The position numbers and the translations under genes were made by a program. From positions 768,001-832,000 of the forward strand of contig OY764159.1 of assembly GCA_963668175.1 (NCBI GenBank): a DNA stretch of 64,000 nucleotides, given 5' to 3'. The stretch is from Syntrophales bacterium (lineage in GTDB: Bacteria > Desulfobacterota > Syntrophia > Syntrophales > PHBD01). Shown here piece by piece: positions 254-27,272 of this stretch (position 1 is its first letter; the number at the start of each line of letters is the position of its first letter). Under the pieces are notes generated by a model. It was not told the DNA's origin. It ran no database searches and saw only the letters and a program-made list of their open reading frames with translations.

Positions 254-1132
254 CTAATCTTTCCGGTTCTCTGCCCAACTCACGATATATTCTGTCGATT
301 TGTCCGGCCTGGCGATGTCCGGTTCCCGGACGGCCCATGCACCCTTCAGTCCCTGTTCCAGCGCCGTCAGCGCAAAATGGCACATGGCGATGCCCATATC
401 CACGCGCTGCAGGTCAGCAAGCTTGAGCAGTTTGAAGGTGAAGCTGCTTTTACCGTATCCCGGGGTGCGCTGGAGGAAGAAGTGCCAGTTGTCCCCTTTT
501 CGGACGATACGCCATGGCTGCTTGTTCGAGGCCGACGGTCCGATGCGCACCATATCGAGAACTGAAGCGTATGCTCCGGCGTCTTGGCGGGTAAGAGGAA
601 CCCCTAATTCCTCCTTGAAGAACAATTCATCCCAGGCCTTCCGATGGTCCGCATCGACCATCCGACGCATCTCGCCCTCCAATTTTCCCCTGCCGGCGAT
701 ATAACCCAGGGATGCCACTGCAGGGATGGACTCGTCCGGCTTCACGCCAATCTTCGCGGCAAACCGGCTCTTTGTAAAAGTCCCCCCCAGCCAGCATGTC
801 CCCAGTCCCAGGTCGGTAGCTTTCAATATAACCTGTTCCATCATGCAGCCGAAATCTTCCAGGTTTTTGTCCGCTTGTGAAACGGCGCCGATGATAAAGC
901 CGGATGCCCCTTTGATGACCCCGTAGGTTCCCAATCCCCTCAAAGAACTGCGGTCCCGCTCCGTTGCCGCCGCAATTTGAAACCGGACCGGCGTACCCAG
1001 GGGACCTTTCGTGAGCGGCGGCAAATAAGTGGCGAGACTTTCCAGGTCGGCGGAAGCAATGGTTTTCTGCTGGTATGTCCGGCAGGAATAACGCCTGCTT
1101 ATGACTTCGGCGACGGGTCTGCTTAAAAGCAT
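254..1132 (-). CDS. Nitroreductase family protein (tandem nitroreductase domains)
   Basis: RRYSCRTY N-terminus, GLGTCWLGG, GPSASNKQPWR and DMGIAMCHF motifs. Confidence 0.9.
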   Translation of the reverse strand: MLLSRPVAEVISRRYSCRTYQQKTIASADLESLATYLPPLTKGPLGTPVRFQIAAATERDRSSLRGLGTYGVIKGASGFIIGAVSQADKNLEDFGCMMEQVILKATDLGLGTCWLGGTFTKSRFAAKIGVKPDESIPAVASLGYIAGRGKLEGEMRRMVDADHRKAWDELFFKEELGVPLTRQDAGAYASVLDMVRIGPSASNKQPWRIVRKGDNWHFFLQRTPGYGKSSFTFKLLKLADLQRVDMGIAMCHFALTALEQGLKGAWAVREPDIARPDKSTEYIVSWAENRKD

Positions 1133-1332: not shown

Positions 1333-2430
1333 ATGTCAAACGATGCGCTCTTAAATCCAGTCAAAGTCGGCCGATACGAGCTTCCGAACCGGGTGTTCAT
1401 GGCACCGATGACGAGAAGCCGGGCGGATAATCCCGAAAATATTCCGACGTCCCTGATAGCCGAATACTATACCCAGCGGGCTTCTGCCGGCCTTATGATC
1501 AGCGAGGGCTCGCAGGTCTCGAAGCAGGCCGTCGGTTATATCCATACGCCGGGCATATACAGCCGGGCCCAGGTTGAAGGTTGGAAAACCGTCACCGCGG
1601 CCGTACACGAAAAGAAAGGCCATATCTTCTGCCAGCTTTGGCATTGCGGCCGAGTGTCCCATCCGGATTTTCACGGCGGCGAGCCCCCCGTTGCCCCTTC
1701 GGCGATCAACCCGAACTCGCAGTCCTTTACCCCGGAAGGATTCAAGGATACGGTAACGCCGCGCGCCCTGACCATAGACGAAATTCATGCCATTACGGTC
1801 GACTTCAGGAAAGCGGCGGAGAATACGATCGCTGCCGGCTTCGACGGTGTGGAGATCCATTCGGCGAACGGTTATCTCTTTCATCAGTTTTTCGCCAACT
1901 GTTCCAATATACGCACCGACGAATACGGCGGCAGCCACGAAAACAAGGCCCGTTTCTTCTTCGAAACCCTGGATGCCGTAGGCAAGGCCATAGGATTTGA
2001 CCGCGTGGGCATCCGGCTGAACCCATCGGCCCACAATTTCTTCGGCATCACGATCGACCGGGGCACCATTCCGACCTTCGAGCATATCACCGAGAGACTG
2101 AACGATTACACGGATCTCGCCTATGCGCATTTTGTCGAACCCATGAACCCGGTGGACGACGTACCTTATGCCGTAAAGGATATCGCCCGGCATTTCCGTC
2201 CCCGCTACAAGGGCACCATGGTGATCAACTGCCGTTTTAAGCAGGAAAGCGGCAACAGGGTGCTGGACGAGGGACTCGCCGACGCTGTCGCATTTGGGAA
2301 GGCCTTCATAGCGAACCCGGACCTCGTCGAACGCATCCGCCGGAAGGCGGCATGGGCCAAGTGGGACGACAAGACTTTCTATACGCCGGGCCCCAAGGGT
2401 TATACCGACTATCCTTTCCTCGACGGGTGA
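1333..2430 (+). CDS. Alkene reductase / NADH:flavin oxidoreductase (Old Yellow Enzyme, NemA-like)
   Basis: NRVFMAPMTRSRA, QLWHCGR, GFDGVEIHSANGYL, RTDEYGGS and FYTPGPKGYTDYP motifs; AGGAGG RBS. Confidence 0.95.
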   Translation: MSNDALLNPVKVGRYELPNRVFMAPMTRSRADNPENIPTSLIAEYYTQRASAGLMISEGSQVSKQAVGYIHTPGIYSRAQVEGWKTVTAAVHEKKGHIFCQLWHCGRVSHPDFHGGEPPVAPSAINPNSQSFTPEGFKDTVTPRALTIDEIHAITVDFRKAAENTIAAGFDGVEIHSANGYLFHQFFANCSNIRTDEYGGSHENKARFFFETLDAVGKAIGFDRVGIRLNPSAHNFFGITIDRGTIPTFEHITERLNDYTDLAYAHFVEPMNPVDDVPYAVKDIARHFRPRYKGTMVINCRFKQESGNRVLDEGLADAVAFGKAFIANPDLVERIRRKAAWAKWDDKTFYTPGPKGYTDYPFLDG

Positions 2431-2595
2431 ATGGCGGGATGCGACGCCAATACGGATTACAATTTCCGAAAAGGTAGCGGCGATCTGATCGTCCGATCAT
2501 CTATCTCACGCATTCCGTCGCCGCAGGTGTCGTCTCTAAAAACCGGGCGCGGAACAACGATACCGTTATTCAGGCAAGTGATATTTTGCTTGACT

Positions 2596-2630
2596 TTATT
2601 TGACATACAAAATATACGTATGCCAAATAA
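2596..2630. promoter_or_regulatory. 13-bp imperfect inverted repeat (operator-like) overlapping the promoter of the 2650 gene
   Basis: TTATTTGACATAC-N9-GTATGCCAAATAA; arms match 12/13 and include a TTGACA hexamer. Confidence 0.55.
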
Positions 2631-2649
2631 TATTCCCGGAGGTTTTCCC

Positions 2650-3405
2650 ATGGATGCAGTCGTCGAGGCAATCAGGGTCTTATGCGAACAGAACGGCATT
2701 CCCGTATTCGGCATCGGGGACGCGTCTCTCCTTGAAGCGGCGCCGGAGGGTTATCGGCCGTCCGACAATCTTCCCGGGGCGAAGAGCGTGGTGTGTCTGG
2801 GGATACCCGTGCCGAAAGGGGTCTTATGGCAAAACGGCCGGTCGAACGCCGTCTATGGGAGGACGGCCAATATTTACTACAGAAAGATGGATACCGTGCT
2901 GCTGCAGGCGGCATGCCTCCTGGAAACAACGGGTTCGTCGGCGTTGCCGGTCTTCGGCTGATTCCCCTATGACGTGAAAGGTCCGGGGGACTTTTGGGGT
3001 TATCTCGCTCTGCCGCAGATGGCGGAGGCGGTGGGATTGGGAAAGATCGGCGGGAACGGTCTTCTGTTTAACGCCGTATACGGTCCCCGGCTGATCCTGG
3101 GCGGCATCCTGACGTCGGCCGAACTGCCGGCAGCGGCCTGGCCGAAGCAGGACGAACAGGGCTGCCCGCCGGGCTGTTCCGCCTGCCGGGAGGCATGCCC
3201 GATCGGGGCAATCGATCCGGCAGGCAAGGTCAATCGGGTATCTTGCCTGTTGCATTCCATGGAAAGCCCGATCCTGTCCCATCTGATCAAGTCGAGGGAA
3301 TTCGGTCCTGCCGATATCGAGGGCGTCGTCAACACGGCGGGCATCGACGATCATTCGCTGTATAAATGTACCCGCTGCGTTTCCGCCTGTCCGTATCCTG
3401 GGTGA
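2650..3405 (+). CDS. QueG/reductive-dehalogenase-like 2x[4Fe-4S] protein, probable selenoprotein (Sec at codon 104, TGA 2959-2961)
   Basis: ORFs 2431..2961 and 2974..3405 are in the same frame, separated only by TGA (…LPVFG-U-FPYDVKG…). GGAGG RBS before ATG 2650. Motifs PGAKSVVCLGIP, AEAVGLGKIGGNGLL, YGPRLILGGILT, CPPGCSACREACP and CTRCVSACP. Hairpin downstream of the TGA. Confidence 0.8.
2962..2999 (+). promoter_or_regulatory. Candidate bacterial SECIS element
   Basis: Stem AAAGGTCC(2977-2984)/GGACTTTT(2988-2995) with a GGG apical loop 23 nt after the TGA, plus possible lower pairing CCCC(2964-2967)/GGGG(2996-2999). Confidence 0.6.
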
Positions 3406-3425
3406 AGGAGAAAGGGAGGTTTCCT

Positions 3426-3869
3426 GTGAACAGAGCGTGGCTCGCACCCTGCGGGTTGTATTGCGGGGCCTGTGGCGTCCTGATTGCGGACCGGACGCAT
3501 GACGACATCCTGAAGGGCAAGATGGCCAAGGCCTTCGGGGTCGCCGTCGAAGATATCCGATGCAATGGCTGCATGTCCGGGACGGTGTTCGTCTACTGCC
3601 GGACCTGCGCCGTCCGGAAATGCGCCGTGGAGAAGGGATATGAGGGGTGTTATCGGTGTGACGCCTTTCCCTGCGGGCATATAGAAAATTTCCCAGTCCC
3701 CGAGGGCAAGCGGATCATTCTGCGATCCATACCCGAATGGCGTACCCTGGGAACGGAAAAATGGACGGAAGGGGAAGAGAAACGCTATAGCTGCGCGAAC
3801 TGCGGCGCACCGCTGTTCAGGGGGGCCAGAAAGTGCCGCGCCTGCGAGACTCCCTTCATGGACATATGA
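3426..3869 (+). CDS. DUF3795-type cysteine-rich protein
   Basis: GTG start after GGGAGG; APCGLYCGAC, CNGC, CxxRxC…GCYRCDAFPC and C-terminal CANCG…CRAC zinc-ribbon motifs. Confidence 0.8.
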   Translation: MNRAWLAPCGLYCGACGVLIADRTHDDILKGKMAKAFGVAVEDIRCNGCMSGTVFVYCRTCAVRKCAVEKGYEGCYRCDAFPCGHIENFPVPEGKRIILRSIPEWRTLGTEKWTEGEEKRYSCANCGAPLFRGARKCRACETPFMDI

Positions 3870-27013: not shown

Positions 27014-27099
27014 GGAGGGATGGCCGAGTGGTCGAAGGCGGCGGTCTTGAAAACCGTTAACCGAAAGGTTCGCGGGTTCGAATCCTGCTCCCTCCGCCA
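27014..27099 (+). tRNA. tRNA-Ser (anticodon TGA)
   Basis: GGAGGGA acceptor stem, GCGGT-CTTGAAA-ACCGT anticodon arm, long variable arm, GGTTCGAATCC, encoded CCA. Confidence 0.95.
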
Positions 27100-27178: not shown

Positions 27179-27272
27179 GGAGAGATGGCTGAGTGGCCGA
27201 AAGCGATCGCCTGCTAAGCGATTGTACGCCCCATAAGGTGTACCGCGGGTTCGAATCCCGCTCTCTCCGCCA
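27179..27272 (+). tRNA. tRNA-Ser (anticodon GCT)
   Basis: GGAGAGA acceptor stem, ATCGC-CTGCTAA-GCGAT anticodon arm, long variable arm, GGTTCGAATCC, encoded CCA. Confidence 0.95.

Follow-up and report, generated by a model that had tools for sequence, protein, structure and literature searches.

The locus described here raises the question of whether a TGA in the middle of a conserved reading frame ends a gene or encodes selenocysteine (Sec). It lies near the start of the window, which is the whole stretch of 64,000 nucleotides of Syntrophales DNA that was analysed. Read with translation table 11, it falls apart into an ORF that stops at 2961 and a second one of 143 aa beginning at GTG 2974, and the public products of this genome are separate proteins of 103 and 122 amino acids derived from the split gene. 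A RefSeq entry labels a 103-aa N-terminal half "hypothetical protein". The preliminary description of this DNA had joined the two ORFs through the single TGA at 2959-2961 into one protein of 251 residues, had found no ribosome-binding site before the second half and had expected annotation pipelines to miss the gene; all three statements were borne out. The results favour, with a probability of roughly 85%, the reading of 2650-3405 as one 251-residue selenoprotein, a minimal corrinoid enzyme of the QueG/RdhA superfamily with Sec in an active-site loop.

The reading frame and the reliability of the sequence

Direct reading of the sequence gave one frame from the ATG at 2650 to the TGA at 3405, with 251 residues and a single internal TGA. 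The features of the gene are the following:

2638 to 2642, forward strand: Shine-Dalgarno-like GGAGG, 7 nt 5' of the ATG, from direct reading
2650 to 3405, forward strand: 251-residue coding sequence for a short Fe-S protein of QueG/RdhA-like type, codon 104 being the predicted Sec
2959 to 2961, forward strand: UGA predicted to be read as Sec (U104) in the context LPVFG-U-FPYD, from the Cys column and the recurrent TGA
2977 to 2995, forward strand: bacterial SECIS-like hairpin of class A, with stem AAAGGUCC, loop GGG and stem GGACUUUU
3403 to 3405: terminal TGA of the coding sequence

The bases preceding GTG 2974, cggctgattcccctatgac, contain no Shine-Dalgarno-like run on direct reading. The codon at this position is GUC or AUA in most of the other Sec forms, so the GTG is not a conserved start.

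The sequence itself was compared with Logan re-assemblies. Runs X1 and X3 reproduced positions 2600-3450, the TGA included, with 0 differences at word depths of 33 and 60; both runs represent one sample, which is probably the source of the genome itself, and these re-assemblies are therefore not independent of it. Run X5 spans positions 2600-2862 only, and the raw reads of run X14 gave nothing that aligned to the region. Five database proteins are N-terminal halves ending exactly at ...PVFG or ...PIFG, with identities of 95, 92, 84, 83 and 50%, and C-terminal halves matching them were also found among short database proteins. The TGA codon is not reassigned in this genome, since the gene's own terminator is a TGA, which is also the stop in homologues.

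Selenocysteine and cysteine at residue 104

Searches with the joined protein recovered 105 homologues of about 250 amino acids. In a 38-row alignment (A1), the column of residue 104 was occupied by Cys in all 37 of the other sequences. The codon was read in 101 loci and was TGA in 36 of them (35 besides the window's gene), TGC in 37 and TGT in 28. A close orthologue (E<1e-60) was present in 8 of the 401 sampled genomes of the phylum, with TGA in two (the window's genome and G148) and TGT or TGC in the other six.

A degenerate DNA pattern, A-x-P-[VI]-[FY]-G-TGA-[FY]-P-[FY], was scanned over 185,579 species genomes. It matched 21 places, 13 of which were true homologues with an in-register TGA, while the remaining eight were chance matches, about the number expected. 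All 13 genomic Sec forms came from MAGs labelled Deltaproteobacteria or Thermodesulfobacteriota, assigned to Desulfobacteraceae, Desulfobacula, Syntrophaceae and Desulfomonilaceae. A metagenome scan (12-row alignment A2) showed the TGA in 21 of the best 80 of 209 relatives. Two of the 13 genomic Sec forms are damaged. In L044 the frame is lost four codons past the UGA and resumes about 80 nt further on, with residues 105-123 duplicated. In L057 the frame shifts near residue 205. The two broken copies may have arisen when assembly joined Sec and Cys strains into chimeras, or they may reflect genuine decay of the gene.

Outside the family the residue varies. Among distant paralogues, 22 rows cover this column, with Tyr in nine of them, Phe in four, Thr and Ser in three each, and Ala, Arg and Cys in one each, a variety that would be expected of a subfamily-specific catalytic position. 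One paralogous subfamily of other genomes (L022-L031 and L043; 29-36% identity) has S-Y-A-P in place of G-C/U-F-P, with Tyr at the Sec position.

Downstream of the UGA, the hairpin listed above is composed of a stem at 2977-2984, a GGG loop at 2985-2987 and a stem at 2988-2995, the loop beginning 23 nt past the UGA. The fold of this one sequence alone was not better than chance when compared with shuffles, with a z of -0.35 over 62 nt and of -1.97 over 90 nt, and the significance of the hairpin can thus come only from the comparison of homologues. Folding was compared over 39 nt, from positions 10 to 48 after the U of the UGA. The mean energy was -10.7 kcal/mol in the Sec forms (n=33 distinct) and -4.6 kcal/mol in the Cys forms (n=58 distinct), with a Mann-Whitney p of 4e-13 for sequences that are not phylogenetically independent. 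At about 15-35 nt past the UGA, every Sec form carries a hairpin that is rich in G+C and has a G-rich loop; three classes of it are conserved in 32 distinct sequences. Each of the three hairpin registers goes with its own peptide version of one surface turn:

class A: R/K-G-P/R-G-D, 14 sequences, the window's among them
class B: L-G-K-G-D, 12 sequences
class C: A/P-G-W-G-D, 6 sequences

Since the hairpins occupy three distinct registers, the idea of one consensus SECIS structure common to every Sec form was dropped. The loops of all classes open with G and start 19-24 nt past the UGA. Bacterial SECIS elements, in the rule used by bSECISearch, are stem-loops with a G in the apical loop located 16-37 nt after the UGA, and the loop positions found here agree with this rule. 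The class-A pair 20-36, which is G-C in the other 13 sequences, is A-U in the window; this change is compensatory, and its 3' base falls at the third, synonymous position of a Phe codon. Pair 26-30 occurs as either C-G or G-C. Class B has an invariant stem of seven pairs, even at synonymous sites, and varies in the third base of the loop. Five Cys forms (L069, L075, L099, L107 and L131) still have a stable class-A hairpin, with energies down to -14.1 kcal/mol; these are probably fossil SECIS elements left by recent Sec-to-Cys conversions. A search of positions 2400-3500 against Rfam at E<=10 detected no SECIS or other relevant family.

The window's genome encodes the machinery for Sec: selA (606 bits), selB (387 bits), selD (391 bits) and a tRNA-Sec with anticodon tca (77 bits). 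The selD gene (G000:C1:4129230-4130159, L012) itself has one in-frame TGA, which makes its product a Sec-containing selenophosphate synthetase and a second selenoprotein of this genome. Elsewhere, selA was present in four of five other genomes with Sec forms and in five of five with Cys forms, which makes the machinery permissive and not discriminating. The Sec-form genome in which selA was not found is G148 (99% complete, 390 contigs), where selB and tRNA-Sec are present. Two sub-threshold matches to the tRNA-Sec model (about 40 bits) were also observed in the window, at 27014-27095 and 27179-27268; presumably they are long-arm tRNAs such as those for Leu or Ser. The G-loop hairpin claimed in the preliminary description was thus recovered, with support from the contrast between homologues, and its proposed checks on the homologue column, the Sec machinery and a possible assembly error all agreed with a selenoprotein.

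These results bear on two other explanations of the TGA. It could be a true stop, leaving either a pseudogene or a split pair made of the 103-aa protein and a piece restarting at GTG 2974 or ATG 3019. The two ORFs of table 11, the 103- and 122-aa public products and the damage in two genomic Sec forms are in line with such a stop, which is nevertheless very improbable: in a tree of 92 proteins the Sec and Cys forms are interleaved and at least eight changes are needed, five of them forced by well-supported branches, and the TGA has been kept at one column through all of these switches. Moreover, median dN/dS values of 0.16 for the N-terminal half and 0.10 for the C-terminal half (72 non-independent pairs of Sec forms) show that both are under purifying selection. 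The lack of a Shine-Dalgarno sequence before 2974, where the codon is not a conserved start, the hairpin specific to the TGA forms and the predicted position of the TGA, inside one compact domain and within its active-site loop, also stand against a true stop.

An error of sequencing or assembly, or a read-through that inserts Trp, Cys or Gly, is barely credible. TGA is reassigned in other lineages, and one of the chance pattern matches fell in a Gracilibacteria MAG, but the re-assemblies reproduced the codon, even if probably from the same sample, and in relatives that are 83-95% identical the protein ends at this very residue. The use of TGA as terminator by this gene and its homologues and the full Sec machinery point in the same direction. 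The UGA at 2959-2961 is thus very probably decoded as Sec, a prediction made from comparison of sequences.

As for novelty, the clusters of a Cys homologue (P0002) are labelled only "hypothetical / 4Fe-4S / epoxyqueuosine reductase family". An exhaustive search, with clustering at 50% identity, gave 20 clusters at E<=1e-30; with the limit relaxed to E<=1e-10 the number rose to 224. Further 103-aa halves are among the clusters. No family of QueG, RdhA or Fer4_16 type appears among the 119 prokaryotic selenoprotein families in Table 1 of PMC13188914 (2026), and term searches of a 2022 selenoprotein review gave no QueG/RdhA-type family. Full-text searches of the literature yielded no description of a QueG/RdhA-like family with Sec. 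The product is almost certainly a genuine selenoprotein that had gone unrecognised, and it represents a Sec/Cys family that is new to an otherwise known superfamily of enzymes.

Fold of the protein and position of residue 104

The AlphaFold model of the protein had a pLDDT of 86.5 and a pTM of 0.85. Residues 1-252 of the model superposed on residues 3-252 of QueG, that is, over the whole length, and VIA-align gave a Z of 18.6 and an rmsd of 3.0 over 204 aligned residues with QueG of B. subtilis and S. thermophilus (5d08/5d0a). The Foldseek match to QueG had an E of 4e-9 and the PDB profile match an E of 5e-14. Lower VIA-align Z values were obtained with PceA and NpRdhA (15-16), the B12 chaperones CblC and CblD (10-11) and the FMN nitroreductases (6-8). 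From these structural matches, the protein is composed of a cobalamin module and a ferredoxin domain only. The order of the two, first a cobalamin module of nitroreductase-like type and then a two-[4Fe-4S] ferredoxin domain, is that of the class III corrinoid/Fe-S superfamily. The features of the protein, given by their codons, are:

2875 to 2880, forward strand: Tyr76-Tyr77, with Tyr76 aligned by hhalign to the Tyr of the QueG DYH motif
2968 to 3003, forward strand: residues 107-118, a predicted 12-residue beta-hairpin insertion relative to QueG, from the hhalign gap and DSSP strands 107-111 and 114-117
3163 to 3198, forward strand: first Fe-S motif, C172-x3-C176-x2-C179-x3-C183-P, invariant in A1 and aligned to the QueG/PceA cluster motif
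3244 to 3246, forward strand: Cys199, lone cluster ligand between the motifs, invariant in A1
3367 to 3390, forward strand: second Fe-S motif, C240-x2-C243-x3-C247-P, nearly invariant in A1

The eight cluster cysteines are C172, C176, C179, C183, C199, C240, C243 and C247; for Cys199, the cluster-ligand pattern of QueG described in sections of PMC4646009 served as comparison. Apart from these ligands, the cysteine positions conserved in A1 are Cys49 (at least 90%) and residue 104 (100%).

A fold of QueG/reductive dehalogenase type had been claimed from the sequence, and Foldseek, VIA-align and the eight Fe-S cysteines support it. The protein is, however, neither QueG nor RdhA proper, as its scores were far below the cut-offs of both families: 32.2 bits against 200 for TIGR00276 (QueG) and 15.9 bits against 160.35 for TIGR02486 (RdhA). 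Pfam gave only Fer4 matches, all of them sub-threshold; PF27538 is assigned in precomputed annotation to several of the homologues, and NCBIfam release 20 contains no model for this Sec/Cys family. The best TIGR00276 match in the window's genome is another gene (128 bits), and among 121 genomes sampled from the phylum, 10 had a true QueG. The window's genome also contains at least five further QueG/RdhA-like paralogues, with ORFs of 276-667 aa, all of them below the QueG cut-off (G000:C1:2424128-2424805, which is L145, together with L146-L148 and L150). Some relatives, among them P0141, P0143, P0155 and P0163, are about 750-800 aa long with two or three matched stretches, and look like tandem fusions of the two-domain module.

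The place of residue 104 was analysed with hhalign, in which the 105-row profile of the family was compared with ten bona fide QueG sequences in local, global and low-MAC modes. The probabilities were 99.1-99.7 and the placement was the same in the three modes. I75-Y76-Y77 fell opposite D-Y-H of QueG, where Tyr alone matches, and F102-G103-U104-F105-P106 fell on V-D-T-G-P, with G103 on the Asp and U104 on the Thr. Y76 and Y77 are at least 90% conserved in A2. According to parts of PMC4646009 and PMC5175355, the Tyr of the QueG DYH motif corresponds to Tyr246 of PceA, above the corrin, and the QueG Asp to Asn272 of PceA, and the QueG Tyr and general-acid Asp are both directed at the region of the fifth ligand of cobalt; the D-Y-H motif and the catalytic Asp are described as strictly conserved in QueG (sections of PMC4646009). 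By alignment, the conserved Tyr of the family is placed above the corrin. For Sec104, the profile alignment, rather than coordinates, gives about an even chance of a location in the catalytic loop. The pLDDT is only about 70 around residues 101-120. In the mRNA, the SECIS hairpin coincides in part with the codons of KGPGD, the tip of the insertion.

A HMMER local alignment equated D114 with Asp130 of QueG. Preference was given to the hhalign result, which also aligns the conserved Tyr, leaves residues 107-118 as a complete insertion and puts the variable KGxGD turn, whose codons form the SECIS loop, at a solvent-exposed tip.

The matches of the fold also bear on whether a corrinoid is involved. 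The protein could be a selenoprotein without being a corrinoid enzyme, its module binding another cofactor or none, and Sec104 and Cys49 would then form a redox pair fed by the two [4Fe-4S] clusters, in the manner of ferredoxin:disulfide-reductase-type chemistry. The conservation of Cys49, which is not a cluster ligand, is consistent with such a pair; most selenoproteins are thiol-type oxidoreductases (as stated in part of PMC13188914), and the FMN nitroreductases have the same module. The alternative is nonetheless unlikely, since the best matches of structure and sequence were, by a wide margin, QueG, PceA and NpRdhA, followed by CblC and CblD, the GxGxxGKNxL core of QueG/RdhA is conserved in the window's protein, and Cys49 aligns with Ser/Ala in a buried strand of QueG. 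Dependence on a corrinoid is thus somewhat favoured.

Genomic context, proposed mechanism and comparison with known systems

The genes closest to the selenoprotein gene are the following:

254 to 1132, reverse strand: TM1586-type nitroreductase
1333 to 2430: OYE flavoreductase
3426 to 3869, forward strand: DUF3795 Cys-rich protein with a GTG start 20 nt past the stop (Pfam PF12675, 65 bits)

The DUF3795 gene is probably co-transcribed with the selenoprotein gene. A LexA-like S24 peptidase and a LysR regulator are further neighbours in the window. None of these five genes recurs beside the homologues in the other loci examined. A MarR-family regulator directly adjoins the homologue in 13 of the 20 loci examined. 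A second recurrent neighbour, seen in six loci, is an Fe-S protein that contains a TrmB-like HTH. The frequent MarR neighbour suggests an inducible response to xenobiotics or electrophiles.

Between the OYE and selenoprotein genes lies a leader of 219 nt (2431-2649) with a terminator-like hairpin at 2570-2593 and repeated TTGAC words. In a relative (P0111, 83% identity) the ORF is over-extended and takes in this same leader DNA (IFCLTLFDIQNI), which indicates that the non-coding leader is conserved. It may hold an operator, and a promoter scan found no sigma-70-like site.

In the proposed mechanism, SelB and Sec-tRNA(Sec) would decode the UGA at 2959-2961 under the direction of the mRNA hairpin at 2977-2995. 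The product would be a minimal, cytoplasmic class III corrinoid protein with neither the tRNA-binding domain nor a TAT signal. Sec104, Cys in most relatives, would be located in the loop that bears the general-acid Asp in QueG and Asn272 in PceA, adjoining Tyr76. Electrons would pass from a low-potential donor through the two [4Fe-4S] clusters to a base-off corrinoid, and the selenol or thiol at 104, together with Tyr76, could act as proton donor or nucleophile toward a substrate held over the cobalt. The reaction would be the two-electron reduction of a small-molecule substrate by an inducible reductase. A position of Sec directly above the upper face of the cobalt, with a catalytic role in which the selenol donates a proton or the selenium bonds transiently to Co or to the substrate, is a tentative and rather doubtful extension of this scheme.

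If this extension holds, the family would contain a selenium-cobalt active site without earlier description, in a widespread, MarR-linked group of reductases hosted by sulfate-reducing and syntrophic Deltaproteobacteria, and the repeated Sec-to-Cys switches and fossil SECIS hairpins would record the ongoing tuning of that site. The finding adds one family to the inventory of prokaryotic selenoproteins and gives the first indication of selenium use in the QueG/RdhA corrinoid superfamily. Mis-annotation, as pairs of short hypothetical proteins or, for the Cys forms, as "epoxyqueuosine reductase", hides the enzyme from metabolic reconstructions of Desulfobacterota. The predicted presence of Sec in the loop of the catalytic acid of QueG would mark a chemically active residue and could serve as a handle in the search for the substrate. 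Furthermore, the three SECIS registers and the probable fossil hairpins of the Cys forms provide a clean case for the study of Sec/Cys interconversion.

Among known systems, QueG (TIGR00276; 5d08, 5d6s) shares with the window's protein the GxGxxGKN core, the two [4Fe-4S] motifs and, by alignment, the Tyr above the corrin. QueG, whose homologues span 300-470 aa, carries a C-terminal HEAT-like tRNA-binding domain, whereas the window's protein ends at about residue 252 of QueG and has no such domain. The DYH of QueG is replaced by NIYYR and its catalytic Asp-Thr by G-U; the window's protein has the extra 12-residue hairpin and lacks an N-terminal insert of roughly 22 residues found in QueG. The Asp, His and Arg141 of QueG and the partner residues of PceA are not conserved in the window's family.

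The reductive dehalogenases (PceA, 4uqu; NpRdhA, 4ras) have the same cobalamin module and ferredoxin domain, with the Z of 15-16 given above, a profile E of 8e-11 to 8q4h and a GPR motif in common with the window's protein. In Dehalococcoides, MarR-type regulators adjoin rdhA genes. The window's protein is, however, about 200 residues shorter, and its N-terminus, MDAVVEAIR, shows on reading of the sequence no RR motif and no visible twin-arginine leader. No RdhB-like or membrane-anchor gene was found among the recurrent neighbours.

FdhA, the [NiFeSe] hydrogenase and HgcA/HgcB differ from the window's protein in fold and family, but likewise have a Sec/Cys pair at a catalytic site beside a metal cofactor (Table 1 of PMC13188914). 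As described in part of the same source, they also carry a SECIS element within the coding sequence, just 3' of the UGA, and are strongly represented in Deltaproteobacteria.
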